Assembly (NCBI RefSeq): GCF_004010195.1
Contig: NC_057755.1
Span: forward strand, 9,950,891-10,013,624
Reading direction: 5' to 3'
DNA length: 62,734 bases
Origin: Chiloscyllium plagiosum
Lineage: Eukaryota
In this document: positions 3,815 to 61,083 of the stretch, piece after piece
Layout of the letters: every line of letters starts with the position of its first letter
Position numbering within the stretch: the first letter of the stretch is position 1
Program-made: the position numbers and the translations under genes
The notes under the pieces: generated by a model
Told to the model about the DNA's origin: nothing
Database searches by the model: none
What the model saw: the letters and a program-made list of their open reading frames with translations, nothing else

Positions 3815-4734
3815 TCACTTCTGCCATTTTATTCGTTCAGTACAATTTACAATGAGACTAAAAGGAGACTTGAGCAAATCAAGCAACTGCTGCCTGAACA
3901 TTCTCTGGATTGCTGTGTAAATGACCGTGTTGGTGCAGGAGCTCAATAACTGAAGCATGACTCCAGCTTTCTGAAATGCTGAAACGGGGTTAAATAATGA
4001 TTTGTGCATATATGCTTTGATCAATCTATAAAAAATGAAATAGCCCACTGTGGTCATCCAGAGCAGCATGAAATTGCAGGATATTATAAAAATTAAAACT
4101 ATTGACTTTCTGCGGTTCTGGAGTTCGGGATCTTTGTCGTTCTTACTGTAGGTCTGATCCCAGAGTCTCCTCCTAGACTGGCTAGTAACGAAGATACATC
4201 TAGCAGTAAGAACATTCAACAATAAAATCAAGAAAAATGGAAACACTGGAGTAATCAGTTGCTCAAGCCAAGAAAACGCTTTCCACGCGCTTTCAAAATA
4301 AAACATTGATGATATATGGCACCCGCTTCGTGTATTATGAATTACATAATGCGATCTGTACACAAAGGGCCATGGGATGTTCTTTGAGCAGAATACTGCA
4401 GTCAAGGTCATGATGACAACACCAGCTGTCTTCCCCGTGCAATACTTTGTTTTCAGACTCTGGCAACAAATAGCTACAAAGCGATCAAAGGTAAAAGCGA
4501 CGGTGAACCAGACAGAGCAATCTACACTCGTGGGAGACAGATAGAGAACAAATTTGCACACTGGAGTGTAGAGCAGAAAGGAGTCCAACCAGAAAAGTGC
4601 AGCCACACGATACAATACTATGTTGCAGAAAATCACCATGAGATCTGATGCAGCCATGGCCAACAGATAGAGATTGACACATTTCGAGAGATTGCATCTT
4701 CCCCGAGACAGGATCCCAATTGTCAGGATGTTGA
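3815..4734 (-). CDS. Coding exon 2 of the GPR139/GPR142-like GPCR (TM1 end to TM7 and C-tail); spliced protein 330 aa
   Basis: Acceptor ttttctttcctcgcag|TC at 4736-4735. The open frame (V)NILTIGILSRGRCNLSKCVNLYLLAMAASDL continues into ORF 3815..4663, with FTFDRFVAICC (TM3 DRY equivalent), Cys in TM3 and ECL2, PFFLILLLN (TM5) and LQLLSSCTNTVIY (TM7). Stop TGA at 3817-3815. Confidence 0.93.
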
Positions 4735-5394
4735 CTGCGAGGAAAGAAAAGCTGTTACAAAAGCAAAATATCGAATCCAGTTTTTAATTCACAGAGTTGT
4801 CGAGTCATAAGGTATTAAAATAGTCTTGACGGTTAAACCATGCTGTACATTGTCACAACTGTACTAGTCCCCCCGCCTGCTCCTGGCCAATATTTGTGTA
4901 ATCCCTCCCTATTCATAAATGGGGCCACAATCACCGCTTCCTCACAAAGTTCTTTCTAGGAGCAAACAAACCCTCTATGCAAAAATGGTCCCTCATGCAA
5001 TTTAAAAAGATCTCCCCCTCACGTTAAAAATTGTCCTCGAGTCTTGAAACCCTCGTCATTGGTGGGGGCGGGGGGGAGCTACCATTAATGCTGCTACCTA
5101 TCCCAGCCATGAGTTTATTGTCTTCTATAATGTTGCCTTTCAACTTGCTGCACTTCAGTGAAACCATGTCAGCCAATCTACACTTTTCTGCTAGCTTAAA
5201 CCTTTCACATTCAGAAGCATCCTGGTGAATCTCTGCTGAACCCTGTCCAGCTTGATAATATTCTTCCTTTCACTGGGAGACTAGAATTGGAAAAGTATTC
5301 CTGATCAGGCCTCACCAATGTCCTGTACAACCTCAACACAATTCCCAACTGCTATTACATGCCATGCAGGAGTCAGCGGAAAGGCCATTATTTA

Positions 5395-5682
5395 TTATAG
5401 AATCACTGCAGTATAGAATCAGGTCATTCAGTCAATCGTACCTATAACAAACTTCCGAAGTATCCCAACCTCACCCTTATCTGTGGAGCCCTGAATTTCT
5501 CATAGCTAATCCAGCGACTTGAACATCGTTGGACTGTGGGAGGAAAACTACACGAACCAGAGGAAACACATGACACAGGAAAATGTGGGATCTCCACACA
5601 GACAGTCACTCCAGAGTGAAATCAAACCCAGGTCCTGGGCACCTTGAGACAACAGTGCGAACCACTCAGCTACTATGCCTCC
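5395..5682 (-). mobile_element. Old V-SINE in the GPCR intron (paralogous copy at ~21235-21486)
   Basis: Degenerate match to the SINE. Both copies share the same right flank (ccttgtc..ttcctaattgc). Confidence 0.75.
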
Positions 5683-8600
5683 CTTGTCTTTTCCTAATTG
5701 CCTTGAGGGTAGTTAAGAGTCAACCAAATCTCTGTGGATCTGAAGATACATATCTGAGACAAAATCACAGTAACAACAGGAACTGAAGTAAGCTGTGTGA
5801 TCGCATCCAATGGTGATGAAGGCTCATCGAACAATCCTCACATCCATTTCCTGATCCTTCCTCGTGCCTTTTGATTCCCTGGCTCATAAAGAACAAATCT
5901 CTCTCTCAGCATTAAATGTACAAAGGCATTTCAAAAATTCAGAACCATCTCAGAGACGGAATTCGATCTCTCTCAGTCTGATATTGATACCACATTAATT
6001 TGGCTCGATGACCTTCACACTCGAGCGTCTGCAGGAGACTCCAATGAGGGGAAACGTCCTTGCAGAGTTTAACCTGCCAAGCCCTTTAAGAATCCTGTAC
6101 GTTTCAATGAGATCACCTCTCACTTTTCTCAACTCTACTTTATAGAGTCCCAGCCTATTTACCATTGCTAATAAGACCATCCCTCCCACACGAGTGAACC
6201 TTTTATGAAAATATTCAAATGAAATAATATCCTCGATTATGGGAACAAAACTGCTCACGGTGCTATCGATGTGCTATTACCATAGTCTTGTACAGCTGCA
6301 GTAAGATTTCTCTATATTTGTGTAAGCTAAACGAAGTCAAGACAGGAAATGTCCTTCCCTGTAACACATTTGCGAACCAGATGGAGATTTTCCAGCAACT
6401 GACTATGGATCCATGCTCCCGTTCAATTAACTTCCCATTGAATTTAAATTTCACCAGCTGCATTAGTGGGATTTGAAACCCTGTTCCCAAAATGTTTATC
6501 TGAGATTCTGGATTACTCGTCCAGTCACATTAGCCCCTCATTCCAGTTTGCTGAGTGCTCAGGTCACAGAGATGTGGACGGCTAATTAAAGAGACTATGA
6601 GAAATAGCCGAATTTTTATCTGTGTGTCTGGCAATTGAAATAAATTTTAAAAGCCCACACTCAAGTCCTGACTGAGATATATGTCACTGTGTATTCACTT
6701 TCACCAGGTCGTAAACTAACTTCAGAATCCCTGAAAGAATAAAGTGAAAAGCCATCTTCTTAATGGCACAGTTAATTTTCGTATTAACAGAAACATTAAA
6801 TGTTGGCAGTGACTCAATTTCCTCATGCACAGAAATTTCGAAATAATCTGACACGTTACCTAATACTAAGCTGCATATCATTTCTGACATTTAACTGCAA
6901 CTCATTTCCTTACATCACAAAGAACACTAAGTTAATTTACTTAGTATTTTCAATCAAATGGTCCAGGAATGTTATGACACAGACTTTGGACCTGGCGGGA
7001 CTCAAAGCCAGGTCTCCTAGAGTCAGACATGTGAAGTTAACGCTGCACAACAACATCCCCAAGGGAGATGAAGGATTTCTGATTAAAATGACTGCGGAAA
7101 GGTAGTTCGCACATTGACATTATTTGCTGCTACTCTGTTTCATACCATACCATGACTACGAGGCAAGCTCTGGGGACCTGTTACACAATGAGGTCAAGAA
7201 TTGTTTTGTTGCTACTGCTTAGGTTTTGATACTTTTGTGAGGCTTATTTCCCTGAATAAATCTATTTTGTGAGGTATCTGGCAGGTTGACCGCTTCTCTC
7301 TTCGCGTTATACCCTTTAGGTTCAGGGTCAAGACAATAATTCGGCATCCCTTCCTCTTCCCGTGATTCATTGACCACATTGTCATTATCTAGTTTCAAAT
7401 TGCTCCTGAATACCCTTTTCTTCATTATTTAGTCGCGACTTTCTTGGTGTTCCTCACCCGCTTTTCGGGATGTCTTTGAAATTTTTCTGCTAACTTTGCC
7501 ATCCCTCGGTGTGTTTTAGCAAGGAGACATTCAGATTGTTGAACGAATTAAATTATTTATGAACACCAACACCGATTTGCTTTCTTTTTCCGCCATCAGA
7601 ATCTCAGCTAGATTATTTTAACACAGATTGTTCTCTGTTGCTTCTCACTAATACCAGGAAGGAGAAGTAAAAGCGATGATTAATGATCGACAGTGATCGT
7701 ATTGCATAGAGGATCAGGTTAAAAGAACTGATTGGCACCCGTTTCGCGTGCTCTCCTGTTCTTAAATGTGGTTAGGGAATATAGGGACGCTAAGGATTAA
7801 AATTTAATTACAACAAAAGAGAGGAGAAAACTCAAGTGGTAAGATGAGCACAAGGAAATAACACCGACAATAAAATGCACCACAGGTCCGTCACAGCGAT
7901 ACAGTAAAGGTCGCTCGGTATCTCAAGTCTGCACCAATTATAAACAACCATCTATCAGTTCTGTAAGCATTTCCAAAACAATTGGCTCATAGGATTCGCA
8001 TCGCAATGCATTTCAAAATGTATTTTCAGAGAGATCAAGGTTTCTGCCTCGACCACTTTCACAGGCTGTTACATCTAAATTTGTGTGCATAAGGTTTTCC
8101 TCGTATCTCATGTAAATTTTCTGACACGTATCTAAATCTATGTCGTCGTTCTTTGATTCTCCAAACAAGGGGAAATGTCGCTTACTGCCTAATCAGTCTA
8201 TGCCATTCATAATTTATACATTTCAATCACGCTCACTCTTAATCACCTCCGCTTAAAGGAAAATAACCCCAGTGTGTCAAATCTCCCTTCATAAATGGAA
8301 GTCTCCAGTCCAGGCAATATCATGGAAAAGCTGAAACGGAAACACATGGGAAATTGTACACGAGACAGACTCGGGCAGAATGAAAAGGAGCAGGATATTA
8401 CTCTGGATAAAGGCATTTCGACTGCTGATAACAACAAAGACGAGTGAAACAGTATAAACCCGAACACGTAGAATCAAAGCAGGGTACACGACAGAAAGTA
8501 TATATGTTTCAGTGAAGATAGATATGAAGGAAAAGTACAGCGTTTTATTTTTCCAGAAATGAATTAAAATACGGATAGAAATTACAATGGTGGCAAGGGA

Positions 8601-8933
8601 CACATAAAGTAGTGAGAAGGGAACTTTGGTATTGAAAGGTATTGGAGAGGGAAGGAGAGGCAGAGAAAGAGAGAGCAAGTGACAAAGATGGAAAATAACC
8701 CAAGTGTGAACTAAGTAAGGGACGAAAATCAAACGATTCCTTAAACAAATGTTGGAGAGATTAGAAGGTGAAGAAAAGTGCATTAGAGATAACGAAGTCT
8801 GAAAATAATCAAGAACATGTGCAAATAAAAAAAACAATAAATAAATTCGCTACACTTACTAGTCCAGAAAGCTAAAGAGTAACACTTCTGTAAAGTTGTG
8901 TTTGATAAGCAACAGAGTATGAAAATGTCTCAC

Positions 8934-9006
8934 CAGTGATACCAACTGCTGCCAGAACAGGATAGAATATAACCTCGATCGAAGATGGTTCAGACCTAAA
9001 CATCAT
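8934..9006 (-). CDS. Coding exon 1 of a GPR139/GPR142-like class A GPCR (MMFRSEPSSIEVIFYPVLAAVGIT)
   Basis: Manual minus-strand translation from ATG at 9006 (second ATG at 9003). It gives a short N-terminus plus the first half of TM1 and ends at a canonical donor ACTG|GTGAGA (GT at 8933-8932). The exon is 73 nt (phase 1), which matches the phase of exon 2. Confidence 0.85.
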
Positions 9007-13650: not shown

Positions 13651-14992
13651 GTAGTTGCACTGATTATGTGATACTTTCAAAGTAAATGAATGCGGAAGTT
13701 AATCTGGAAGCAAATCGAAGAAGGACACCATCTTATCTCATGTAGGATGCTGCGAATTAGCAAAAAGCATGACAAAAGAATGCTATTTGCTGGATGACTT
13801 TGGTCGTTGCATGCGTATGAGAATGCATCTGAACATGACTGTGTTTCTGTGTGCAGGTGTTTACGTATCTGTGTGTCTATGTATATTCGTGGTTATATTT
13901 TAGTGTGAATACGTGTGCGTGTCAGTTTGTTTGAATGCTTGTGTTTGAACGTCAGAGTGTGCGTGAGAACGTGTGTGCACACATGAGTCCACACGTTTAT
14001 GTGTGTCTGTGTTTTTGAGTAACTGTGTTTTTGAGTGTTTGTGTGTGAGCATACGAATGCTTGTGAATGTATGAGAGTGTGCGTGTTTGGGTTAGAAGGT
14101 TGGAGCTGCTTCCGAAAAACATAATCTCAAAAGGAATGAAATGACCATATGCTGGGTAGATTCTAGTGACTACCTGTCATTTTAAGTGCTGTCGTTTATC
14201 TGTATTGTTGTGAAATTTCAAGCACAAAGAGATTGTGGCCTACTTGGTCCTCACTCACTTACCAATGGATGTCATATTATAACATTGTCTTGAAGATCGC
14301 ATGTTTCTGTAGGATCTGATGAAGCCGATGGTCCTTTTGTGGGTAAGATTCCCGTGAGGCTTTTCTTGTACCTCATTGAAAAGGTCACAGACTGTGATGG
14401 AAATAAGCCTTTCTCAATCTCTGCCTTAGACCCTCCCACAGGAAGATTTATTCATCCTGCCCCAACTACTTACATGCTTCAATCAAGTCGCTTCTTACTC
14501 TTCTAAACTCCGCGAGCTCAGTCTGACCATCCTTTCGTCATACAATCTTTGTGCCAGGGATTATTCGTCTAAACATTTTCTGAGCTGTTTCATTACAGTT
14601 ACATCTTTCTTTAAATATTGAGACTAATGCTATGCTTACGACTCCAGATTTTTTTTCAAACATGCATTGAATACGTGATGCTTTACACACTGTCTGTGTA
14701 TTTAACCCACATCGAAGGAAATGGTGACAGTTTATTAGTTTTGCTGATTACTTGCTATGCCTGCATTCCCATTATCTCTGATTCATGCACAACGACACCT
14801 GCGAACCAGAGCTAGGAAATCTATCACCATTTAAATATTGCGGTTCTTTTTGGCAACTTGAATTTGGGATGTGGAAAAAAAACTGCTCTGCAGAAATGAG
14901 GATGCATCGAATACTGCTGTGTAATATGAAGGACACATCAACCAATGTTTGTAATGTGGAGGAAACATAAACCATTGCTCTCTAATATGGAC

Positions 14993-17731
14993 TATTTATG
15001 GAATGGCCGCAAAAACGCCGGTGACCCGTCACCAAGTCAACTTTTACTTAAGAGTACACAGCTCACAAACGCTGACAAGGCAGCTAAATTCCAGTCAAGA
15101 GAGGGAGGCAATCCTCTGAATTTCCTGTTCACATCTGTCAGCCAGGGCTGGCAACCCCAATCAAGACTGTCATAGTCAGTATTATCCACTTGGTACTCAC
15201 ACACAACCCCTCCCCCTCATGCCATGTTTTCTCTCTTGTAGCTTTTTTCTAGGACGTAATTGTCCATGCCTGCGTCCGCCGACTGTGTTCCAGTATAGGC
15301 AGTTTTGCCCATCTCCTACAGCCAAAACATCTTTGGAGAGTTGGCTCAACTTCCTCAGGCAGTATTGACGTTGCATCCATCGTGGACCCATGCTTTCTTT
15401 GACATGAGATGCACAGGGATAACCCACGGTTTCTGTCAGCCCTTCTGGCTTATCTAAGGGGCCAGGTATATTTGGTCCTGTGCTGTATATGAGATAGCAG
15501 CTTTCGCCTGATTCATAAGTTTGCGCAGGACCACCTCACCAAAGTGATATTTTCATGTTACAGACCATATCACGCCTCATTCCCATACAGGTCCATTTCC
15601 GTTGTTTAGAAACCAGCTTTCGTCCCCTGATGTAAACTTTTCTCTCTGAAGTTCGAATATGGTCGGCATTGGCATTCCTGGTGCCGTTTCACCCTCTCTG
15701 TAAAGTCCTGGAATTTCAGTTTTAATCTGGAGCAAAGCCATTTTCCCATCAGCAACTCTGCTGGAGCTATCCCTCTACTGAAGAGTAGCCCTGAAATGAA
15801 ACAGGACCATGGACATCTTGGTATCGAGTGAAGTTATTGGCTATTCCTTTAAGAGTAACTTCCACATTTAAGTTTCTCTTTCTGGCAGACTATTGGACAA
15901 TGAATGGTTTGGAGCTGTCCCCCAACCATCTGAATGGAATTCGAATTTAGGAAATAATCGAAATCACTGCCGATAAACGATTCCTAATTTTCTATAACCA
16001 ATAATACCCGGAGTGCATTTATCGCAAACGTTGCTTCCAGAATTTCAATTTGCATTCCTGACATTGCTGAGTGAACTGTATGCACATCCAAACCACTTTG
16101 AATGGACATCCACAATCAACAACTGAGCTCCACAAAATGCTCACGAAAGTGAACCGGGCTGTCAGGCTTCACTTTCGGCATTACCATTGCTGAAAATTTC
16201 GCAAACTGCATTGGTTTGAAGATCTCTTTGCTTTCCAGCCTTCTGGTTTCTACCTGTATTGTTGCCAGACAAATGGAACCGAGCAGGCCTTGGAGAAACA
16301 TGGAATTGCTCCCTCGTCAATGTACAATGTCGCCATGGCTCCTTTGATCTTCTCTCGTCCTTCCTGAAATTCTTCTGCATATTTAATAAAGACTTCACTC
16401 GGGCGTCCATTTTCTAATCGAAAAAACATTGAGACAATCAAAGTGAATCTTTCACAAATAGTTCTTCTCTCACAAGTTTGGGTTAGAGCCTTTTACTGCA
16501 GTCACTGGCAACTGCATCGACATTTTCTCAGAGGACAACAGAATCAAAGTTCTACCCTCAATCTGTCATATTTCCCTGGAGTATGTTCTCAATATCTCTC
16601 CTGTGCAAACGTAAGAGTTGAAGTCCAGAGAGAATCTTGTTAAAGATTGCTTCTGCCACCACTGACACAGCTGTGCTGGTATTGGCCCCCTTGAGAACTG
16701 GACGACCATTTAACCAGACATTTAGTCTAATTGCTTCTGATTTGAATTAGGTCATTCTCAGGCACATATCAATGGACTTTCCAGGGTGCGCACTCTCCTT
16801 GATACCAGCCTATGAGTTCCCTTAAAAACGTTAGGCCTTGTAGGACTCATTTGCTTCCTCGAGTCTGCATACCAGCAGCAACTTGAATGGCTTGTTGGCC
16901 CAGATCCAGTGGAAAAAAAAATAATCACTTGGCCAAGGCTTGATTGTGTTGTGGGGTTTTGTTGTTGTCTGGCCGAGAGTCGCTCTCCTCAGGATACGGT
17001 GGCATGAACCTCTGTGATTGACAACACTCACGTGATATTCTTCAATATTTTTCAGAGAGTTGAGAGTGTCCACTTCCATTATGATACCCGGTAGCTCCCA
17101 TGCTCCACTTGCCACATTTTCTAATGACAAATTCAGATATGGTACCTGTTTGAATTTCTGTCGGTCTTCAGTAAGTCGGTGCATTTGCATGGTTATATCA
17201 TTAATCCTCAATGCCAAACAACCTCTGAGCATATCATGCAGGATTAACCCAGAGTAACATGGTGTAAAAACAATGACTGCAGATGTTGGAAACCAGATTC
17301 TGGATTAGTGGTACTGGAAGAGCACAGCACTTCAGGCAGCATCCGAGGAGCAGTAAAATCGACGCTTCGGGCAAAAGCCCTACATCCGGAATCACATGCT
17401 TCGGCCAGTGGACATAACCTCGTCGAAAATCTCAACATGGATCTCCCCTTTTCAGGCGAATAGAAAGAATGGGGTCTGAGATTAAAGTAGACTTGGGATC
17501 GTAATATGTTTCCTCACTAAATTCGTCCCATCTTGAAAGGTTTCAGCGTCTGTTGTCTCTGGGAATGTTCGGCATCTAGTATCGAAAAATGGTATGGACC
17601 TGAAAACACTCAGAAAAATGTGTTGATTCAGTTCATCTGCTCCAGTGCTGTTTGCTGAGAAGAAATATCGATTGTTTTCCACACGTGGGACCGGACTTCG
17701 ATGGTAAAATCGAATGAATCAAGCTTCCCAC
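14993..17731 (-). mobile_element. Gypsy/Ty3 element copy 2, truncated at its 5' end
   Basis: Collinear with 1-2495, including the same RT-to-integrase deletion junction (16105-16165 vs 1030-1080). 3' LTR at ~14993-15205. Confidence 0.85.
17258..17382 (-). mobile_element. Penelope pLTR fragment inserted in the gag of Gypsy copy 2
   Basis: Close reverse-complement match to 26575-26692. Absent at the paralogous site ~2160. Confidence 0.85.
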
Positions 17732-18250
17732 TCTTATGGACTAGGCCAGACCACTCAAAACATTCTTGAGCAGGCAAGCCAGACCGTAACTTTGCAACTT
17801 ACTTCCGTAAGTGTACGGTGAAACTTACCCGGAGTAAGCTTGCTTGGTTGACTGACAGATTTAAAATAGACGGAAAAGAAATCACAAAATTACACAATGA
17901 AACGCTAAGAACAGAATAAAGAACCCCTTCTGAACTCAGACTATCCAAAATTGGATTTAATTATGCTGTTCCGAATATACACAACAGTCTAAGTACGCAA
18001 ACCCTATTAAAACAGAGTAAGATAAAGAACAGATGCTTAAAGGTTTAAAGTAAAATGAGAGACAGAGAGAGAGCCTGTTTTAAAAGAGCTCGCTGTTGAA
18101 CTCCCAGCTATGTCTGGTCTGAACTGAAGTGCGAGATAATTGCCCACTCCCCTTTCATTATACGGGTTACTTCTAAATCATGACCACTTTGGCCTGAAGT
18201 CACGTCTGTTTACATATAAACAAAAAAAAAAGCCTCTCAAAACTCATTAA
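17732..18250 (-). mobile_element. LTR fragment of a Gmr1-like family, inverted relative to the LTR at 20546-21140
   Basis: The reverse complement of 20640-21140 aligns along its length, e.g. aggccagaccactcaaaacattctt vs aagaatgttttgatttgtctggcct and gaccactttggcctgaagtc vs gacttcaggccaaagtggtc. Confidence 0.8.
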
Positions 18251-18455
18251 TAGCATGGCCAATTCACCTAACCTGCGCATTCTTGCGACTGTGGGAGGAA
18301 ACCGGAGCAAACCCACGCAGACACAGGGAGAATGTTCAAACTCCACACAGACAGTCGCCTGAGGCGGGAAATGAACCTGGCTCCCTGGCGCTGTGAGGCA
18401 GCAGTGCTAACCACTGTGCCACAGCAGTGCTAACCACTGTGCCAACATGCCGCCC
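18250..18455 (-). mobile_element. V-SINE (HE1-like), partial
   Basis: Similar to 57085-57276, with an internal 23-bp tandem duplication. Confidence 0.88.
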
Positions 18456-21140
18456 ATGAAGATCGTGTGGTCACAAGATCACAAAGGTGCAAGTTGAAGT
18501 ATGAAAGATAAAAATCCACAGAAAAGGAAGCGGACTTAGCTTTATCTTAGAATTTTGTTTTGATCGGATAAGTCGCACAGAGCAGGAGGAAACACATAAA
18601 AGTGCAAATATCTTTAGCTCTGCTATGCTTCCTTAGTTACAGCAGAAAGATGGGAACTTAAAACAGTTATATCAAAAGGCATATACACAGAAGGACAGTG
18701 AATACCTTCCTGGGTATTACTATTGAATAAGTGATGCCTTAATGAGGAAATGGAGACCTTTACACGTTCAAGCAAATGAGAAATGAGTGGAGATTCATCA
18801 AACTGTTTTGTCAGTAGGGTATACAAAGGGGATGTTACGAGTCACGCATGAGCTACTACTTGGAGTTAATTTTGGAATGAAGAAAACACAGACTAAATTC
18901 CAAAGAGATTTTTACTGACCTAGACTACACAAGGATGTAGTTGAATTTTGCCAGAAATTTCACACATGTCAGCTAATCGGAAAACCACAGGCAGTAATGA
19001 AACCTGCACCTTTAATACCTATTCCTGCATTTGATGAACCTTTTACAAGGGTCTTGTAAAGTAGCGTAGGTCCCATACCGCAAACAAAAATGGGATTAAG
19101 TATTTATTAATAATAATGAATGTGTCGACTACATTTCCAGGGGCAATTCTATTATGCATCGTCACAGCTAAAGATGCTGTAGCAGAATTACTTAATTATT
19201 TTTACCAGATACGGACTGCCAGCAGCGATCCAGTCAGAGCACGGATCAAACTTCACATCCAAACTATTCAAGGATGCTTTGAATGACTTGGGAACAAGGC
19301 AATTCAAATCTACTGCGTACCATCCGGAATTGCAGTAAACGTTAGAGGGATGGCAGCACACACTCATGAACATGTTGATGGCTTGGGGTCAGGAGTATTC
19401 AGATGATTGTGGTAAGAGCGTTCTGTTTGTACTTTATGCCTTCAGAAATGCACCAAACGAATTGACCAAATTCAATCCATTTGAAATTCTATTTGGGAAA
19501 GTAATAAGAGGACTGTTAAAATTGATTCAGGAGAATTAGTAAGTCAGAATTCAGACACCACCTGTTTGGACTATGTGCCAGATTTTATGGAACGATTATA
19601 CAGAGCTAGAGAAATGGCCAAACACCATTTATCAGACTTATTTGATCGACTTCAGAAGGCAAGCTTGGTGGTAAATATTCTAAAAGTAAATTTGCCAAAG
19701 CCCAAGTCACCTGTTATTGGACATGGGGAAATGGCCTCACAGATTGCAAAAATGAAAATAATTGAGAATGTTCCACATCGACGACGAACAAGTAGTACTA
19801 CAGTTTCCGAGATTGAGTGGATTTTACCGGAATTATGTGCTGAACTTTAGCAGTGTGGCTGCTCCACTCTCCGAATTGTCAAAAAAGGGCAAGATTTTTA
19901 AGTGGGCAACGGACTGTTAAAAAGCATTTGACAGACCAAAAAAAAAAAGCGGTGTCACCTATTGCCCCAGAATCAGCCACACTGGATTACATGAAGCCTT
20001 TTTTTAGAGGGCTATCGATGTCAGTGATGTGGGTGTCAATGTGGTGGTCCTGCAGGAAGATGTCAAGTGATTAGAAAGACGCATCAGGTATTCTTCCAGG
20101 AAGTTAAACTTTCATCAACAGAAATATTCAATAGTGGGGAAAGAGACTTTAAGGTTGGTGTTAGCCTTCCAACATTTCAGTGTTTCTATCATCAGCAATG
20201 CACCTGAGACAATTGTATATACTGATCATAACCCATTGACATTTCTGGAAAATTTAAGGTCAAAACTGCCAGACTGGTCAGATGGAATTTGTTGTTGCAG
20301 CCATGCAATTTGACAATTGTGCATGTGGCAGGTCGTGAAAACATGATTGCTGATGCGTTATTGAGGCTCGAATGAGATACGGGTGTGTTGCGTGACGAGT
20401 GTCCCGCGGCCTGAATTTGCATGTTTGAATGTTTATAGTTAGTATAGTGCACATGCATGATTAGATTACTAACCAACTTTTTGAAAGATTTTAAAAATGA
20501 GGCCATCTTTTGGTAGTGATGGTTCATGTTTGAAAGGAGGAGGGTGTCTCAAGGATAGTATGCTCTTTGTTTACAGAATGGTAATAAACAGGTCTCGCTG
20601 CAGATTACACTGTTTAAGCAGAGCTTAAAGTGGATTGCGAGACCTTTTTGTTTATATGTTAAGAGGCGAGACTTCAGGCCAAAGTGGTCATGTTTTAGAA
20701 GTGACCTGTATAATGAAAGGGGTGTGGTCAGCTCTCTACCTGAGCAGTTTAGTCCAGTCCAGAACGAGTTGTGAGTTCAACCGTGAGCTGTGTAGATGTT
20801 GTCTGTCTCCTTCTGCTCTTCTAACTTAAACCTGTAAGCATCTGTTCCATTTTTAAACTGTGCTTCAAGAGGGTTTGTGTTTTGAGACGTTTGTGTATAT
20901 TTGGAACAATATCATTAGTCTAGTTTGGATTAACTGACTTCAGTAGCGGTTCTTTATTCTGTTGTTGTGTTTCATTGTACAATCTTGCCAATAAACTTCT
21001 GTCTCTTTTGAATCCAGTTAGTCAAACTAGCTACCTCACTACGGTTAATTTTCACTGCACATGTACTGAAACATAATGCATAGGAATGGGCTAGGCTGTC
21101 TGCTTAAGAATGTTTTGATTTGTCTGGCCTATTCCACGAC
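18456..21140 (+). mobile_element. Gmr1-like Gypsy LTR retrotransposon remnant (integrase, then RT fragment, then RNase H, PPT, 3' LTR)
   Basis: Integrase zinc-binding region and core (HKDVVEFCQKFHTCQLIGKP; IQSEHGSNFTS) at 18830-19600 lie upstream of RT/RNase H (YSSRKLN...YTDHNPL...NMIADAL) at 19610-20370. Polypurine tract aaaggaggaggg precedes TGT at 20546; the LTR ends in ...gaca at 21140. Confidence 0.85.
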
Positions 21141-23380: not shown

Positions 23381-24577
23381 ATTAGCAAACCAGATGCTTT
23401 TTTTTTACAGCCACTGACAATGGGTCCATGGTCTCTGCGAAACTAGCTTCTCATTCACTGCCTGCCATTGTGAGATTTGAAACCCTGGCCCAAACCCGCC
23501 TGAGAGTCTGGATTATTCATCCAGTCACCTCATCACCACACCATTGCCTCCAATTTGACTGATCTTTTTCGAGTATTTCAACCTATCCCCTTATTCCGCT
23601 TCGCTGAGGGTGCGGATTACAGAGATCTGGAGTGCTGCAGTCAAAATGAATGTGAGGAAAAGCTTAACATTTTTCTCTGATTCTTGCAATTGAAATGAAC
23701 ATGAAAAGCTCACACTCAAACCCAAACTGAGAAATATATTGGTTTGTATTCACTTGCACCACTTCAAACATTAAGCTCAGAATCTCTGAAAACTAAAGAA
23801 AAATATATCCTTTTCAACTGAACAGTGGATTTTCACGTTAACACAAACATTTAAAGCTACCAGTGGCTTTATTTCCATTGCATTGACTTCCGAAATAAGC
23901 TGATAATGTACCTTATGCGAAGCTGCAGACAATGTCTAACATTTACCTGTGCCTCATTTGCTAAAATCAAGTGAACATTGTATTATTTTACTTGGTAGAT
24001 TCAAGAAGGTAATGAAACACGCTCTCGACCTTGTGGGACCCAAAGCCAGATCTTCTAGCCTCAGAGATGAGGAGGCTACCGCTCTGCCACTACAGCCCCA
24101 AGCAAGGTGAAGGATTTCTGATTAAATGAACTTTGAAAGTTAGTTCACACATCGTCATTATTCACTGTTAATTGTTTAATGCTACAGCACAACTACCAGG
24201 CAAGAACTGATGACCTGTCATACAATGATGTCAGGAATTGGCATATTGTTGATGCTTTGATTTTGATAGTTTTGTGAGTTCTTTTAACTGATTAATCTTC
24301 TTTTTCGTGAGTTTTCTGGAACGCTGACCGCTTCTCTCTTCTCGTTACATTCTTTAGGATCAGGCACAAAACAATAATACGGAATCCCTCTCTCTTCGTC
24401 TGACTCATTGATCACATCTTCATTGTCCAGTTCCAAATTACTCCTGAATACCCTGTTCTTGTTTTATTTTTGTAACTTTCTTGGTGTGGATGTTGACACA
24501 CATCACGAGATTCTTTCTTCGCCCCTTTTTTGGTGCATTTTCAAAGGTTTTCTGCAAACATTGTGTTGTCCCTCAGT

Positions 24578-26692
24578 TCCTCAGTATTTGCCCACCTCCA
24601 ACACACTGCATCCACCCAGACACCGTGCGCTGGCCTATTACCCGCCCTCGATCTTTTCATTTCCAACTGCCAACGGGACATTAACTGCCTCAACCTGTCT
24701 ACCCCCTCCCCCACTCCAACCTCTTACTCTCACAACGCGCAGCCCTCCAATCCCGACCTCATCATCAAGCCAGCAGATAAAGGGGGCGCAGTGGTAGTCT
24801 AGTGCACTGACCTCGACACTGCTGAAGCCAAACGCCAACTCGAGGACACCTCTTCCTCCCGCCCCCTCGACCACGACCCCACCCCCATCACCAAATCGTC
24901 ATCTCCCAGACCATACAGAACCTCATCAATTCAGGGGATCTCCCACCCACAGCTTCCAACCTCATAGTCCGGGAACCCTGCACTGCCCAGTTTTACCTCC
25001 TTTCCAAGATCCACAAGCCTGACCACCCTTGCCGACCCATTGTCTCAGCATGCTCCTGTCCCACTGAACTCATTTCTACCTACCTCGGCACCGTCCTATC
25101 CCCCCTCGTCCAGGAATTCCCCACATACGTTAGAGACATCACCCATGCCTTCCACCTCCTCAAAGACTTCCGTTTCCCTGGCCCCCAACGCCTCATCTTC
25201 ACCATGGATATTCAATCCCTCTACACCTCTATCCGCCATGACCACGGCCTCCAAGTCCCCCGTTTCTTCCTCTCCCGATGTCCCCAACAGTACCCTTCTA
25301 CCGACACTCTCATTCGTTTTGCCAAACGGGTCCTCACCCTTAACAATTTCTCCTTCGAATCCTCCCGCTTCCTCCAGACCAAAGGGGTAGCCATGGGCAC
25401 CCGTATTGGCCCCAGTCATGGCTGGCTCTTTGTTGGCTACGTAGAACAGTCGATCTTCCATCATTACACCGACACCACTCCCCACCTCTTCCTCCGCTAC
25501 ATTGATGACTGCATTTGCGCCACCTCGCGCTCTTGCATATGTTGGTGAATTCATCAACTTCACCAGCACATTCCACCCTGACCTTAAATTTACCTGGACC
25601 ATCTCTGACACCTCCCTCCCCTTCCTAGACCTCTCCATTTCCATTAATGACGACCGACTTTATTCCGACATTTTTTACAAACCCACCAACTCCCACAGCT
25701 ACCTGGATTACACCNNNNNNNNNNNNNNNNNNNNNNNNNNNNNNNNNNNNNNNNNNNNNNNNNNNNNNNNNNNNNNNNNNNNNNNNNNNNNNNNNNNNNN
25801 NNNNNNNNNNNNNNNNNNNNNNNNNNNNNNNNNNNNNNNNNNNNNNNNNNNNNNNNNNNNNNNNNNNNNNNNNNNNNNNNNNNNNNNNNNNNNNNNNNNN
25901 NNNNNNNNNNNNNNNNNNNNNNNNNNNNNNNNNNNNNNNNNNNNNNNNNNNNNNNNNNNNNNNNNNNNNNNNNNNNNNNNNNNNNNNNNNNNNNNNNNNN
26001 NNNNNNNNNNNNNNNNNNNNNNNNNNNNNNNNNNNNNNNNNNNNNNNNNNNNNNNNNNNNNNNNNNNNNNNNNNNNNNNNNNNNNNNNNNNNNNNNNNNN
26101 NNNNNNNNNNNNNNNNNNNNNNNNNNNNNNNNNNNNNNNNNNNNNNNNNNNNNNNNNNNNNNNNNNNNNNNNNNNNNNNNNNNNNNNNNNNNNNNNNNNN
26201 NNNNNNNNNNNNNNNNNNNNNNNNNNNNNNNNNNNNNNNNNNNNNNNNNNNNNNNNNNNNNNNNNNNNNNNNNNNNNNNNNNNNNNNNNNNNNNNNNNNN
26301 NNNNNNNNNNNNNNNNNNNNNNNNNNNNNNNNNNNNNNNNNNNNNNNNNNNNNNNNNNNNNNNNNNNNNNNNNNNNNNNNNNNNNNNNNNNNNNNNNNNN
26401 NNNNNNNNNNNNNNNNNNNNNNNNNNNNNNNNNNNNNNNNNNNNNNNNNNNNNNNNNNNNNNTCTTCATCCCTTCCCCCACTCACATATTGTACTCTATG
26501 CTACTTTCTCCACACCCCCACCCTCCTCTCACTTATCTCTCCACGCTTCAGGCTCTCTGCCTGTATTCCTGATGAAGGGCTTTTGCCCAAAACGTCGATT
26601 TTACTGCCCCTCGGACGCTGCCTGAACCGCTGTGCTCTTCCAGCACCACTAATCCAGAATCTGGTTTCCAGCATCTGCAGTCATTGTTTTTA
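24578..26692 (+). mobile_element. Penelope-like retroelement (RT plus terminal pLTR), spanning the gap 25715-26462
   Basis: IIKPADKGGAVVV, MDIQSLYTSI, QTKGVAMGT, FLRYIDD and FLDL motifs. The 3' pLTR contains ctgatgaagggcttttgcccaaaacgtc. Confidence 0.9.
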
Positions 26693-27924
26693 CCCATTTC
26701 CCATTACCAATCCATCTAACTTGCATATCATTTGGAATTCCACGGACACACAGGGAGAAACTCTGTTCTGCACGTACAGTCACCTGACGATGCAATCAAA
26801 CCCGGGTCCCCAGTGGCGTACGGAAGCAGTGCTGCCACTATGCCACCGTACTACTCAAGTGCCCACAGTAACATTAAAAAAGCTTGCATAATATACAGTA
26901 TTATGGTCACGCCCAGAATCCCTGAAAATATTTTAAGAATATAGCCTAGACACTGAAAGTCTTTTTTATCTTACATTCAAGTGCCAGACAAAGCATTCTA
27001 GATGCAAATTGATTGCTCAAACTGTCAGATTTGAAGAAAATAAAAAGAACAGACTTCATTCATACACTGCTGTGAAAATCCATCAAATCAAGAAACGGAA
27101 TATGTTAACTCATTTGGGAAAACTTAACAGAATAATAGATTATTAGCGACTAACCGTATCTGTTCCAACATTGTAACATCCCATAAGCATATCATTCACA
27201 CAGGCAAATTCAGTAAAATAGATCATCTCACGACAATTCTCCAATAAAGAGAAGATACAGCAAGAAAAGCTCAGAGATGGAGTAGAAGGGAAAGCTGCAC
27301 TGCAGCTTCCAAAGTACAGCTAGAACACTCCTGCAGCACCCTTGACAGAGAGGAACTGAAAGTAAGAAGTCTCCTTCTGTGACAGTGTGACACTATCCGT
27401 CCAGGTTGTTTCAATATTTCCAATTTCAAAACAAAGGAAGGCCTCACAAGCTGTTACCCCATTGGGTTAACGTAGAAAGCTCTTCATGTCAATCTTAATG
27501 CCTTCAAAAAAGGACAAATTGCATCCCTTGAAGAACACGCATTGTCATACGTCTCCGCTTTAAAAACTGAACCTTCAGTATAAAAAAAGGCTTGATTTTT
27601 AAAAGCCTTTAGTCTTACATGACAATGCATATACAGTACATCGACTCAAACAGTCAATATCTCAGTCCATTTCCTGACCTTTTCTGCCTTTATCAAAGTC
27701 TAGACAAGCAAATATGTTCTCTTGTCCTGCCAGGTGTATGTTTTGCAAATTGAATGGCTGAAATTATAGACTCCATCACTGCAGTGCTGCATTTTTAGCT
27801 TTAATATTTAAAAAAAAATCTTTGAGAGGTTATGTTTGGTGTGTACAGTTATCTCAGACACATTACTTGCAATATAAACATTGAAATGTCGCAACGCCAA
27901 CACAATGCTCAAGGTTTTAATGCA

Positions 27925-30600
27925 AAACAGGAGGGGGCGTAGCATTGCTAATCAGAGAGTGCATCACAGCTATAGAAACGAAGGTTGCTGAGGAAGGTTT
28001 GTGTACTGAGTCAGTGTGGGTGGCAGTTAGGAACAGCAAGGGAACAGCCACAGCATTGGGGGTTCTCTACAAACAACCTAATAGCAGTACAGAGATTGAA
28101 GATCTCATAGGCGGGCAGATTGTGGAAATATGCAAAAGAAACAGGGTTGTTATTAAGAGTGACTTCAACTTTCCTAATATCGACTGGAACGTCCTAAGTG
28201 TAGATGGTTTGGATGGAGCCAATTATGTCAGGTGTGTTCAGGAGGGTTTCCTTACTCAGTATGTCGACAGACCGACGAGGGGTGAGGCCATTTTGGATTT
28301 GGTGCTCGCCAACAAGCCAGGACAGGTATCAGATCTCGCGGTGGGAGACCACTTTGGTAAAAATAATCACAACTGCCGCACATTTAGCATAGCCTTGGAA
28401 AGTGAAAGGAACAATTACCGAGGGAAGATATTTAACTGGGGAATAGGAAATTATGACGGTATCAGACAGGAGTTGGGAAGTACATACTGGGAGCAATTGT
28501 TCCACAGAAAGGGCACAGCAGACATGTGGAGACTATTTAAGGAGCAGTTGTTGCGAGTGATGCAATTTGTTCCTCTGAGACAGGTAAGAAGGAGTAAGAT
28601 TACGGAACCTTGGATGACGAGAACAGAGGACTTTTCTTCAAAAGGAAGAAGGCAGGTTCTGTAAGGTGGAAGAAGCAAGGATCTAGCACAGCTTAAGAAA
28701 ATTACAGGCTTGCTAGAAAGGAGCTCAGAAATGGACTGAGGAGCGCCAGGATGGGGCACGATAAAGTTTTGGCAAGAAGGATTAGGGAGAAACCAAAGGC
28801 GTTTTACTCATACGTGAAGAATAAGAGAATGATCAAGGAGAAGGTAGGGCCGATCAAGGAGAAGGTAGCGGAGGGAACTTGTGCGTGGAGTCTGAGCAGA
28901 CAGGGGAAGCCGTAAATGAGTTTTTTGCTTCGGTTTTCACAATGGAAAAGGAACTTTATATAAATGAAAACTTCGAGGAACTGGAATACAGTCTTGACCA
29001 CATCTAGATTGATAAAGTTGATGTGCTAGATATTTTTGAAAACATTAAGGTTGATAAGTTCCTAGGGCCAGACCACATTTATTCTAGGCTTTTTCGGGAA
29101 GCGGGAAAGGAGGTTGTGAAGCCGCTAGCGAGTATATTTGCCTTTAAACTCTCCATGGGTGTTGTACTGGAGGATTGGAAAGAGGCGAATGTTGTTCCTC
29201 TTTTCAAGAAGGAGATCTCTGGCAATTACAGATCAGTCAGTCTTACGTCTGTGGTCAGCAATGTTTTGGAAAGAATTCTGAGGGATAGGATTTATGACTA
29301 TTTGGCAAAGCATAGTGTGATTAAAGGCAGTCAGCATGGCTTTGTCAGGGGCAGGTCATGCCTCACAAATTTTATTGAGATCTTTGAGGAGATGTCAAGA
29401 CAGGTCGACGACGGTCGAGCAGTGGATGTGGTGTATGTGGACTTCAGCAAGGCATTTGATAGGTTTCCCTATGGTAGGCTCATTAATAAAGTCAGGAAGT
29501 ATGGGATACGGGGAGACTTGGCTATCTGGATTCAGAATTGGCTGGCTGACAGAAGACAGAGTGCGTTTGTAGATGGAAAGTATTCTGCCTGGAGGACAGT
29601 GTTGAGTGGGGTACTGCATGGATCTGTACTTGGGCCTCTGCTCTTTGTAGTTTTCATAAATGACTTGGATGAGGAAATTGAAATGTGGGTTAGTAAATTT
29701 TCAGATGACACAAAGGTTGTAGATGTCGTCGATAGCATAGAGGGCTATTGCAGGCTGCAGCGCGACATAGATATGATTTAGAGCTGGGCTGAGAAATGGC
29801 AGATGGAGTTCAACCTGAATAAACGCAAAGTGTTGCATTTTGGAAGGTGAAACTCGAATGCTGAATATAGGATTAAAGACAGGATTCTTGGCAGTGTGGA
29901 GGAATAGAGGGATCTGAGTGTGCAAGTACATAGATGCCACAAAGTTGCCAACCAAGTGGATAGGTTTGTTAAGAAAGCATATGGTGTTTTGGCATTCATC
30001 AACAAAGGGATAGAGTTTAAGAACCGAGAGGTTTTACTTCAGCTCTACTTGGTGAGACCACACTTGGAATATTGTGTCCAGTTCTGGTCGTCCAACTATA
30101 CAAAAGATACAGTGGCTTTGGAGCGGGTGCAAAGAAGGTTTACCAGGATGCTGCCTAGACTGGAGGGCTTGCCCCATGATCAAAGGTTGAATGGGTCGGA
30201 CTTTTCACGCTGGAGAGAAGGAGGAAGAGAGGAGACCTGATCGAGCTGTACAAAATAATGAGAGAAATAGATAGAGTCAATAGCTAGAGACTTTTCCCCA
30301 GGGCATGATTGACTGGTACGAGAAGTCATAGTTTGAAGATATTAGGAGGAAGGTATAAAGGAGACGTCAGAGGTAGGTTTTCGACATAGTGAGTTGTGAA
30401 TGCATGGAATGCATTGCCAGTGGTGGTGGTGGATGCAGATTCATTGGGGACATTTAAGCGACTGTTGGATATGCACACGGATAGCAGTGAGTTGAGGGGT
30501 GCGTAGGTTGTTACTATATTTTACATTAGGATTAAATCTCAGCACAACATCGTGGGCCAAAGGGCCTGTTCTGTGCTTTACTTTTCTATGTTCTATGTTC
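27925..30600 (+). mobile_element. CR1 LINE, 5'-truncated ORF2 (APE endonuclease plus RT) with stops and frameshifts
   Basis: SDFNFPNIDW, RPTRGEAILDLVL, QHGFVRGRSCLTN, DFSKAFD, GSVLGPLLF, KFSDDTK, LVRPHLEYCVQFWS motifs and a (ttctatg)n tail. Confidence 0.95.
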
Positions 30601-45109: not shown

Positions 45110-48100
45110 AAACATTGGCTTTGTATCTCTGTGTATTTCAGAGGGGCTTAGAGAGGAGCTACAGAAAGGTCGTCACACCTAAGTTACAAGATAAAGGTAG
45201 CTGGGTGACCGTCAGGAAAGGAATGAGAATAGGCAGACAAGACAGTGACCCCCCACCCCCCCTCACCCCCCCACCCCCCCGTGGACTTTCCCCTCAATAA
45301 TAAGCATACCATTTTGGTTACTGTTTGGAGGGGATGACCTAGCAGGGTTAAGCCACTGCGGCCAGGTCTCTGGCACGGATTCTGGCTCCGTGGCTCACAA
45401 AGGAAGGGAAGAGAACAGGACAGCAATAGTGAGAGAAATTTAGTCATGAGCAGAAGAGACAGGACGTTCTGTGTTCGCTTGCAAGAATTCCAAGCGATAT
45501 GTTGATTCTGGATGCCAGGGTTTGGGATGATTTGGATCGAGTCTACAAGATTCTTAAGATGGAGGAAGAGCAACCAGACGTTGTGGTTCGCATCGGTATC
45601 AATGAAAAGGAGTGTGGACCAGAAAAATAATTATAGAGAGTTAGGTTGGAAGCTAAAAGATAGGATGAGCAGAGGTATAATCCCAAGATTGCTACTGGTG
45701 CCACAGGCTCGTAATGCTAGGAACAGAGAGAAAATTCCGATGACCAATGGCTACTGGGCTGCTGAAGGAGGAGGGTTACAGATTTGTGGATCATTGGGGA
45801 AGGTGGGAACAATACAAGAAGGATTGGCTCCACCTGAACACTAGGGGCACTAATGTCATGAGTGGGAGTTTTGCGAGAGTTTTCCGGGAGAGTTTAAGCT
45901 CGGTTAGCACTGGGGTGGGAACCGGGACTGTGGATCAGATGACAGAAGAGGTCTTGAACAGCCAGGTACAGCTTGCAGAATGTCAATGTGGAGGATTAGG
46001 CACTGGATAGTGCAAACGTGCAGTCAGTGTGATGAGTTGAAGTGTGTCTATTTTAATGCAAGATGTAACAAGAAAGTGATTAATGAACTCAGGGCATGGA
46101 TCAGTGCTTGGAATTATAACTTTTTGGCCATTACAGAGACTTGGATATCACAGGAACATGAATAATCGTTGGATGTTCCAGGGTTTAGATGTTTCAAAAA
46201 GAATAGTGGGGGAGTTAAAAGAAGTGGAGGAGTGGCATTGCTAATCACAGCTATCATAGCTGTAGAAAGGGAGGTCGTCGAGGAGGATTTCTCTGCAGAG
46301 TCAGTGTGGTTGGAAGTCGAAAGCGTCACTTTGATGGAGTTTACTACAGACCCCTCAATAGCAACAGAGACTCGGACTAGCAGATTGGGTGGCAGAAATG
46401 GAAAGATGTAACGTGTCAGGGTTGGTGTCATGGGCGACTTCAACTTCCTTAATATTGATTGGACTGTCTTTGCTTCAAATATTTTGGATGGAACTTTGTT
46501 CCTGAATCATATGTAGATAGACTACATGGAGTGGAGGCCATATTGAATTTGGTGCTTGTCAACGAAGCATGTCAGGGGTCAGCATGCTTGGTGGGAGACC
46601 ATTTTGCTGATAGTGATCACAACTCCCTGACCTTTACTGTATTCATTCAGAGGGATAGGAACAGACAGTATGGAAGTTTATTCACTTGGGTACTCACGAA
46701 TTGTAATGCTAATAGGCAGGAACTGGGTCGCCTAAATTGGATACAGATGCTCTCGGGAAAATGCATGAAGGAAATGAGGTTGTTCAGAATGCAATTGCTG
46801 ATAATGCTGGACAGGTTTGTCCAACTGAGGCAAGGAGATTGAAAGGGCCTCGGGTGAGAAGGGATGTGGAACATCTAGTCAAGAGAAAGAGGAAGCTTAG
46901 TTAAGGTTAAGGAGGAAAGGATCAGATAGGGCTTTAAGGACTTACAGCGTAGGCAAGAGGAACTGAACAATGAACTTACGAGAGCTAGTTGGGGGCATGG
47001 AAAAAGTTTCATGTGTAGGGTTAAGGAAAACCCGAAGGCAATCTACACTTACGTGAGAAAGAAGAGCATGCCCAGTACGACAGTACGCCTGATCAGGGTT
47101 AGTGGAGCGATGTTATGCCTGGAGACAGAGGAGGTAGTGGATGTCTTTAACGAATAATTCGCTTCAGGGATATTGACGTTTCTGTGGACAGCGTGAAACA
47201 AATTGATGTGCTTGAACATGTAAATGTTAGGAAGGAGAATGTGCTGAAAACGTTGCCAAACATAAGTATAAATATATTACCTGGGCCAGATGGGATATAT
47301 CCTAGTGTGATACAGGAAAAGAAGGAAGAGATTACTACACTTTTGGCGATGACCTTTGCATCTTCACTATCTGCTGGAGTAGTCCCAGATGACTGTCGGT
47401 TGGCGAAATTTTTCCCCTTGTTCAAGAAAGGGAATTGGGAAAGTCCTGAGAATTACAGACCGGTCATTCTTACAGACGACTGCAGGTTGGTCTTTTTTCC
47501 CCTTGTTCAAGAAAGGGAATTGGGAAAACTCTGAGAATTGCAGAACAGTCAGTCTTACATATGTATTGGAGGGTATTGTGAGAAACAGGATTTATGATTA
47601 CTTAGAAAATCGTACTTTGATTAGATATAGTCAGCATGGTTTGGTCAGGAGCTGGTCATGTCTCACATCCCTTATTGAATTCTATGTGGATATCTCAAAA
47701 CACATTTACGAAGGTAGAGCAGTGGATGTGGTGAACATGGAATTAAACAAGGAGTTAGATCAGGTTCCCCATGTTAGGTTCATTTAGAATGCAAGTAGGC
47801 ATGGGATAAAGGGAAAGCTGTCTGTCTGGATTCGGAATTGGCTGGCCCATAGAAGACAGAGCGTGAATGTAGATGGAAAGCATTCAGCTTGAAGCTTGGT
47901 GATCAGTGGTGTTCCACAAGATTGGTTCTTGGATCTCTGTTCTTCGTGATTTTTATCAGTAACTTGAATGAGGAAATGGAAGGGTGGGTTAGTAAATCAA
48001 CTGATGGCACAGAAGTTGCTAAAGTTGTTCATAGCGTTGTAGTTTGCAAGGGTAAACTGACAGGATGCAGAGCTGGGATGATGAGTGGTAGATTGATTTC

Positions 48101-48838
48101 AAACCGGAAAAATGTGAAGTGATTTCTTGGTAGTGTGGGGGGAAGAGAGGGATCTTAGGATCTATGTCCCTCGACGTTGCCACCCAAGTTGATATATTTG
48201 TTAAGTGGGGTATGGCGTATTAGTTTTTTTTAAGCAGCGGGTTGTGTTTAAGAGCCATGAAGTTATGCTACAACCCCATAATGAGCTGGTTAGTCCGCAC
48301 TTTGAATATTGTATTCAGTTCTGGTCGCCTCATTATAGGAAAGATGTGGAAGCTTTAGAGACAGTACAGGGGAGATTTACACTCACGCTTCCTGGACTGG
48401 AGGGCATGACTTATGAAGAAAGTTTTAAGGATCTCATACTTTTCTTATTGGAGTGAAGAAGGATGAGAGGCGACTTGCTAGAGGTGTAAAATATGTTAAG
48501 AAGCATACTTGGTGTGGATGACCACAGACGTCTTCCCATGGCAGAAATGTTTATCACGAGGTGGCATAATTTTAAGGTAATTGGAGGAAGGTTTAGGGGA
48601 GATATCAGACGTCGTTTTCTGACACAGAGTTGTGAGTGCGTGCAGTTCACTGAAAGCAGTAGTAGTAGGTTCAGATACATTCGGGACGTAAAAGCGATAT
48701 TAGATAGGACGTGGAAGATATGACAATGAAAGTTCTATTGTCTAATTTAATCGTGAAATGGGACAAAAGGTCAGAGCAACATCAAAGGCCTAATGACCAG
48801 TAACGTGCTTTATGTTCTATGTCATATGTTCCATGTTC
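45110..48838 (+). mobile_element. Near full-length decayed CR1 LINE (ORF1 esterase-like remnant plus ORF2)
   Basis: ORF1-like VVRIGINE and LHLNTRGTNV; ORF2 LKCVYFNAR, AITETW, GGVALLI, HFEYCIQFWSPHYRKD; tatgttc-type tail. Confidence 0.9.
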
Positions 48839-59929: not shown

Positions 59930-60115
59930 GAACCACTACTCTGTAATATTGAGCACTCCTCAATCACTGCTGTATAATATGCAAGGCGAATAAAACAACT
60001 CTTAGTAATATGAAGTACCCAACAACTACTAATCTGTAATATGGAGGATGCATCAAAAACTGGTCTGCAATATGAGGTCACATCAATCACTGGTCTGCAA
60101 TATGGAGGTGACATT
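59930..60115. repeat. Degenerate ~30-bp minisatellite (actggtctgcaatatggaggtcacatcaatc), also at ~14900-14992 and ~51885-52000
   Basis: A tctg(t/c)aatat(g)gagg-like core recurs at about 30-31 bp spacing at all three sites. Confidence 0.75.
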
Positions 60116-60943: not shown

Positions 60944-61083
60944 TCAAATTGTGACACTGTACCGCTGCTTTACTTGTTCAGTACGATTACTGATGAGACT
61001 CAGGGGAAACTTGAACAAATGTTGCCTGAACATTGTCTGCGTTCCTGTATAAATTACCGTGTTGGTGCAGGGGCTCAGTAACT
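60944..61083 (-). CDS. 3' end of a second GPR139-like paralog (partial, runs into the assembly gap; gene or pseudogene undetermined)
   Basis: Manual translation QLLSPCTNTVIYTGTQTMFRQHLFKFPLSLISNRTEQVKQRYSVTI* aligns with gene 1 QLLSSCTNTVIYTAIQRMFRQQLLDLLKSPFSLIVNCTERIKWQK* with a 3-aa gap. The 3' flank 60200-60930 is homologous to 2960-3730. Confidence 0.85.

Follow-up and report, generated by a model that had tools for sequence, protein, structure and literature searches.

Cartilaginous fishes are reported to be relatively poor in G protein-coupled receptors (GPCRs) (PMC8455134), and shark olfactory repertoires are described as small and dominated by V2R genes (PMC6368271; PMC11979771). In the catshark, the olfactory families amount to 2 OR and 6 OR-like, 3 ORA, 3 TAAR, 2 TARL, and 32 V2R genes (PMC11979771). 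The invertebrate relatives of GPR139 and GPR142 are FMRFamide/MIP-type receptors (PMC8514136), and the srw/FMRFamide-like receptors include candidate chemoreceptor expansions (PMC11682238). Here, we describe a gene in a 62,734-nt stretch of the Chiloscyllium plagiosum genome (contig NC_057755.1, positions 9,950,891 to 10,013,624, forward strand; hereafter the window), which encodes a class A (rhodopsin-like) GPCR and, judging from its sequence, belongs to a large chondrichthyan receptor family with dozens of copies per shark genome.

With the OR, TAAR, V1R/ORA, V2R, TAS1R, and TAS2R repertoires the family shares gene clusters, birth and death of copies, a variable ligand side, and a conserved signaling side. 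Unlike the OR, TAAR, V1R, V2R, and TAS receptors, the receptor described here has no match to their Pfam families, carries a coding intron within the first transmembrane helix (TM1), and appears to be of GPR139/FMRFamide-receptor-like descent. It resembles the srw/FMRFamide-like expansions of nematodes, gastropods, and planarians in belonging to the same broad branch and in repeated expansion (PMC8514136; PMC11682238), and differs from them in being part of an independent vertebrate radiation (the invertebrate rows fall outside with support 100/99 in the 37-row tree described below) and in having no match to the srw Pfam family. Atlas neighbors of the protein include srw clusters, which we treat as a lead only.

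A two-exon gene for a class A GPCR

The gene is composed of the following parts:

8934-9006, minus strand: exon 1 (73 nt), with the start codon, a short N-terminus, and the first half of TM1; GT donor, phase 1
4735-8933, minus strand: GT-AG intron of 4.2 kb, containing interspersed-repeat fragments; from splice signals and self-comparison
3815-4734, minus strand: exon 2 (920 nt), from the remainder of TM1 through the C-terminus and stop codon; AG acceptor, Pfam match, and predicted fold

Joined (9006-8934 plus 4734-3815), the exons give an open frame of 330 amino acids and a stop codon, with the splice junction inferred from homologous relatives as well as from the GT-AG signals. In Pfam, the exon-2 frame matches 7tm_1 (E = 3.7e-16, 59.8 bits versus a curated cut-off of 30.5), and the AlphaFold model is a helical bundle with a mean predicted local distance difference test score of 86.9 and a predicted template modeling score of 0.83, in agreement with the intact two-exon seven-helix gene of the first-pass annotation. 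The class A landmark residues N1.50, D2.50, R3.50, P5.50, and Y7.53 are all present. Foldseek gave template modeling scores of about 0.7 to many class A receptors and singled out no nearest one among the class A structures, with GPR139 only at rank 9.

The first-pass annotation had also pointed to about 10 residues before TM1, an N-terminus without a glycosylation sequon, DRF in place of DRY, a TM6 without proline, and an NTVIY motif in TM7, and all of these are indeed found. The first hydrophobic stretch begins near residue 9 (N1.50 is residue 26), sequons occur only at residues 39 (first intracellular loop) and 321 (C-terminal tail), DRF occupies residues 108-110, and P6.50 is replaced by T. 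These motif changes could be read as signs of a pseudogene, a reading that we rejected because they are family-wide: in an alignment of 183 family rows, of which the 174 covering the core were kept, F3.51 occurs in 156, T6.50 in 123, and T7.50 in 165. Human GPR139 likewise aligns without P7.50. Thus, the short N-terminus and the motif changes are present, but being shared by the family and in part by GPR139, they are weaker evidence than proposed. With its open frame and conserved core motifs, the gene reads as a real and intact family member. Five coding differences occur in two further runs from this organism, and four of them are synonymous, a small hint of purifying selection. The same two runs cover the intron, show no splice joint, and are apparently DNA; single-cell runs, of which about 2% and 6% were sampled (tissue unstated), gave 4 and 0 reads, none of them exonic.

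A large family in cartilaginous fishes

Of the 2,441 candidates (clustered at 90% identity) in a search with the exon-2 protein, 1,448 clusters passed E ≤ 1e-10. Taxa and names were counted in the best 120 of the 1,448 clusters, the remainder of which may include non-family rows. Elasmobranch names were found on 119 of these 120 matches, from 15 species and at 45-58% identity, and 113 were labeled probable or putative GPR139, while the names OR, TAAR, V1R, V2R, and TAS2R were absent among them. Likewise, no odorant- or taste-receptor Pfam family matched the protein at E ≤ 0.01, and 7tm_1 alone passed. When the best 120 matches were grouped by single linkage at 90% core identity, which gives lower bounds, the 36 Heptranchias rows formed at least 31 paralog groups and the 33 Heterodontus rows at least 28; the Heterodontus rows are spread over at least 13 contigs, 12 of the 33 sharing one contig of 131 Mb. 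An exhaustive search returned 101 clusters (50% identity) at E ≤ 1e-30, and of 19 family representatives that were looked up, 16 were elasmobranch, 1 was from Callorhinchus, and 2 carried no taxon. The proposal of an expanded, lineage-specific, and uncharacterized family therefore survives the check for a small number of paralogs, since at least 31 and 28 groups per genome were found and they fall within a single chondrichthyan clade (see below).

Many database models of family members have long and dissimilar N-termini or start within TM2, probably because the small first exon was missed. Other automatic labels in the family include vasopressin V2, CAPA, TRH, tachykinin, and GPR15 receptor-like.

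The chondrichthyan radiation is apparently undescribed, and RefSeq already lists its members under an automatically assigned name. The expansion was not described in the literature found on GPR139-type receptors in sharks, a search that excluded subscription papers and the supplement of PMC11979771. The family is not mentioned in the main texts of PMC11979771, PMC8455134, and bioRxiv 10.1101/2022.10.17.512540, GPR139 occurs in PMC12294341 in a reference title only, and there was no match in the supplements of PMC12768270 and PMC13188829 or in 12 of the 24 supplementary files of PMC8455134.

Relation to GPR139 and to other vertebrate relatives

With the family profile, the best solved relative was GPR139 (E = 2.5e-23), followed by the neurotensin receptor (2.9e-16) and chemokine receptors (~2e-14). 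By this measure GPR139 is the nearest characterized receptor, and the family is placed in the GPR139/142-like superfamily. The GPR139 gene has two exons, like the gene described here (PMC7318219), and the receptor shares with the closest solved structures, those of GPR139 (PDB 7vug, 9m42), and with GPR142 a short N-terminus, the absence of P7.50, and W6.48. However, the protein is only 21% identical to human GPR139 (38.7 bits, versus 108 bits to a salamander protein), whereas the zebrafish GPR139 ortholog is 70% identical to the human protein (PMC7318219). The sequence comparison therefore indicates that the gene is not a GPR139 ortholog and that the database label marks superfamily membership rather than orthology.

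In GPR139, Trp and Phe are bound by E3.32, F3.33, H5x43, W6.48, R6.51, and N7x38 (PMC7318219). Of these six residues, our protein keeps W6.48 only, and 162 of the 174 relatives keep two or fewer, so the amino-acid sensing that had been suggested by analogy cannot be transferred from GPR139. The receptor further differs from GPR139 in lacking P6.50, in having C3.25, which is absent from GPR139 in their alignment, in a long TM5-TM6 linker that is basic and carries an invariant Asp, and in existing in dozens of copies rather than one.

To place the family, we relied on a tree of 37 rows, rooted on five distant invertebrate-type rows; the support values are those of this tree. The chondrichthyan family forms one clade (99/98) of shark, ray, and chimaera paralogs, in which the subclade of our gene has support 100/100. 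A Callorhinchus (chimaera) gene is nested within the chondrichthyan clade (96/92), so the radiation appears to predate the chimaera split. The family likely arose from one GPR139/142-related ancestor. The sister of the chondrichthyan clade is a gene of amphibians and sturgeon (95/90), the nearest bony-vertebrate relative found. A quick tree of 86 rows was concordant with lower support (Shimodaira-Hasegawa approximate likelihood ratio test values of 92 and 92).

The salamander protein mentioned above was the first full-length match outside the family (30% identity). Its own relatives comprised 25 matches, namely 20 amphibian clusters, 1 sturgeon cluster, and then 4 elasmobranch family members. 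Each species contributes a single cluster to the 21 bony-vertebrate rows, and the amphibian/sturgeon gene (e.g., XP_069092602.1 of Pleurodeles) is apparently single-copy. It shares with the chondrichthyan family an acidic-basic motif before TM6 and 30-33% identity, and differs in its almost invariant pocket, which in 22 of 22 rows retains three of the six GPR139 residues (F3.33, W6.48, and N7.39) and, like GPR139, is basic at 6.51. The gene is unnamed, no amniote or teleost row occurs among the 25 matches, and its pocket is basic at both 6.51 and 6.55. It is a good target for deorphanization.

A second GPR139-like gene belongs to the same superfamily and bears the same automatic label, but forms a separate clade (100/100) with a conserved pocket. 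The best 120 of its 145 matches span coelacanth, sharks, ray-finned fishes, amphibians, and reptiles, and none of these 120 bears the name of a bird or mammal; the shark sequences are 60-66% identical to coelacanth XP_005988539.1. The gene is apparently single-copy and may correspond to one of the GPR210A/B groups named in Rinne et al. 2019 (PMC6504862). Two of its rows are misannotated as TMEM183A isoforms, which hints at a neighboring gene.

Variable pocket and conserved intracellular face

Chemoreceptor repertoires typically retune their pockets after duplication while keeping one G-protein interface. In the 174-row alignment, with the pocket represented by 27 generic positions, mean pair identity was 0.72 for the intracellular face, 0.38 for the extracellular half, and 0.39 for the pocket, and there were 144 distinct 13-site pocket strings. 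In the amphibian/sturgeon gene (22 rows), the values were 0.99 for the pocket and 0.79 for the inner face, and in the second GPR139-like clade (64 rows), 0.77 and 0.69, so that in these two single-copy relatives the order is reversed and the pocket is the better conserved part. The same holds at matched divergence: at 50-65% core identity, Heptranchias paralogs had a pocket identity of 0.39 and an inner-face identity of 0.77 (517 pairs), versus 0.74 and 0.64 for ortholog pairs (1,296 pairs). A variable pocket on a conserved inner face would fit many ligands and one signaling route. Together with expansion into multigene clusters that undergo birth and death, this pattern, measured as protein identity, bears out the resemblance to a chemoreceptor repertoire that had been noted from the short N-terminus and tandem array.

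A negative net pocket charge, found in 145 of the 174 family rows, was considered as a family signature and rejected, since the single-copy second clade is equally negative (63 of 64 rows).

Chemical sensing as a proposed function, and its alternatives

We consider chemical sensing at sensory or barrier epithelia the best reading of these comparisons, and put its probability at roughly 0.5. A single receptor with a fixed GPR139-like ligand would have duplicated early in cartilaginous fishes, and its copies would have been retuned, from a GPR139-like ancestral pocket, to many ligands while one G-protein interface was retained. We infer the retuning because the pocket of the sister gene is invariant, that of the family is hypervariable, and the inner face is conserved. 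The conserved inner face would imply a single transducer, presumably Gq or Gi/o by analogy with GPR139. The ligands would be small molecules or peptides present in the water or in a lumen, and may be cationic, as D3.37 in 139 of the 174 relatives weakly suggests. Detection would be combinatorial, the members sharing the G protein and each binding different external molecules, and the likeliest sites would be the nose, taste buds, solitary chemosensory cells of the skin or gill, or the gut.

If the receptors are expressed in sensory cells, they would form an unrecognized chemical-sensing repertoire of sharks, rays, and chimaeras, and could help explain shark smell or taste with few classical receptors. 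The at least 28-31 divergent members per genome, hidden under one misleading label, are a partial count that already equals the 32 V2Rs of the catshark. A more ambitious proposal, which we advance tentatively and hold to be somewhat improbable as a whole, is that chondrichthyans possess a further olfactory or chemosensory family from the GPR139/FMRFamide-receptor branch, which would match or exceed their V2Rs in number and be expressed in sparsely distributed sensory cells. Its radiation would precede the chimaera split, and bony vertebrates would have retained one copy with a fixed ligand. If true, this would overturn the small-repertoire view of cartilaginous fishes.

Several points weigh against chemical sensing. 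The 27 pocket positions come from generic helix numbering and not from model coordinates. The outer helix positions that do not belong to the pocket are nearly as variable as the pocket itself (0.46 versus 0.39 identity), and protein identity cannot tell positive selection from relaxed constraint. The branch of our gene is the longest in its subclade of the 37-row tree (0.47 versus 0.22-0.42) and the gene departs from several family residues that are near-invariant, so this copy may be under relaxed selection. That tree resolves the family and its amphibian/sturgeon sister, but contains no true GPR139 and GPR142, with which the first-pass annotation had proposed to build it. Immune or irritant receptors would be expected to show the same pattern of variation. 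Finally, family type does not fix the tissue, since even the canonical OR genes of the catshark are reported to be expressed most strongly outside the nose, in spleen, testis, stomach, or ampullae (PMC11979771).

Among the alternatives, an immune or irritant-sensing repertoire fares best, though we regard it as unlikely. Here, the receptors would act in leukocytes, mast-like cells, or nociceptors and recognize microbial or damage-derived peptides, on the model of the mammalian FPRs or MRGPRs. Tandem expansion and a variable outside with a conserved inside would be expected of such receptors too. If correct, this reading would add a new repertoire for recognition to the oldest lineage of jawed vertebrates that has adaptive immunity. 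MAS1 and its relatives are reported absent in cartilaginous fishes, which leaves such a role open (PMC8455134). However, there is no sequence tie to chemoattractant receptors, as GPR139 comes well ahead of the chemokine receptors with the family profile.

Somewhat less plausible is repeat-driven segmental duplication with an outer half under relaxed constraint, which would have left redundant and weakly expressed receptors without tuned ligands. The units in the window are rich in repeats, one of the three being dead and one doubtful (see below), and the variation spans the entire outer half. Yet signaling motifs stay near-invariant across the dozens of full-length paralogs found in each genome, the radiation is older than the chimaera split, and the coding differences mentioned above are mostly synonymous.

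We give slightly less credence still to receptors for endogenous peptides or reproductive cues (in neuroendocrine cells, gonad, or sperm) that diversified alongside a ligand family. There are neuropeptide receptors in the superfamily (PMC8514136), in vitro responses of GPR139 to ACTH/MSH peptides are reported (PMC7318219), and 154 of the 174 relatives retain the canonical TM3 cysteine. Against this, receptors with a fixed endogenous ligand have conserved pockets, as is seen in both single-copy relatives. To our knowledge, no matching ligand expansion exists. As for a plain shark ortholog of GPR139 or GPR142, which the automatic label on 113 of the best 120 matches and the rank of GPR139 as best solved relative by sequence would suggest, the 21% identity (versus 70% for zebrafish), the 38.7 versus 108 bits, and the single shared pocket residue make it highly improbable and, for GPR139, effectively refute it.

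Tandem units and repeats in the window

Self-comparison of the window revealed three related units on one strand, the first of which contains the gene. The following features belong to the other two:

15091-42615, no strand assigned: dead duplicate unit, in which the intron and both flanks (3' and 5') of unit 1 recur at 64-74% identity (self-comparison)
17737-21136, no strand assigned: broken retroelement remnant at the expected exon-2 site of the dead unit (integrase zinc-finger and RNase H matches)
59284-60904, no strand assigned: third-unit downstream copy of the 3' flank of the gene, 63% identity (self-comparison)
60944-61083, minus strand: paralog fragment, the final ~45 codons with the end of TM7, helix 8, and stop codon (sequence match and family hidden Markov model (HMM))
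61084-61573, no strand assigned: assembly gap of 490 N concealing the remaining paralog, followed by simple repeat to the end of the window (sequence)

The dead unit had been proposed before, and its recurring flanks and intron confirm it. Neither exon could be traced in it with the family HMM or nhmmer; for exon 1, a gap of 748 N (25715-26462) lies in the interval expected to hold it and may conceal it. The second proposal, a paralog 57 kb away on the same strand, stands in part. A homologous tail is present, with 63% identity over 41 amino acids (E = 2.8e-9) and a 3-residue deletion in helix 8, but it consists of no more than these ~45 codons beside the 490-N gap, and a second intact gene in the window is not shown. 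The absent part of the paralog's exon 2 would need about 780 nt, versus the 490-N gap and the simple repeat beyond it. The local tandem array, with birth and death of units, is nevertheless real.

All three units carry copies of an old, decayed element that lies 3' of the gene (5-2804, 14875-17750, 51886-54604, and 59284-60117). One copy adjoins the junction between units 1 and 2, an arrangement that points to repeats as guides of the tandem duplications. The duplicated 3' flank (1-2300 and 15001-17300) gave no Pfam match in the 9 frames tried, and no further gene was recognized within the window. The retroelement at 17737-21136 is flanked by inverted arms of ~490 bp that are about 73% complementary, and one of its plus-strand frames has the integrase zinc-finger match ahead of the RNase H match, an order which we take to be that of Gmr1-like long terminal repeat elements. 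Broken frames of non-long-terminal-repeat retroelements occur at 24497-25700, 27921-30240, and 46217-48835, with Pfam reverse-transcriptase or endonuclease matches at 24826-25545, 27921-28661, and 29008-29778 and a related copy at 46-49 kb by self-comparison. At the end of the window (61574-62734), a simple tandem repeat of degenerate units, each roughly 28-40 nt long, yields long spurious open frames.

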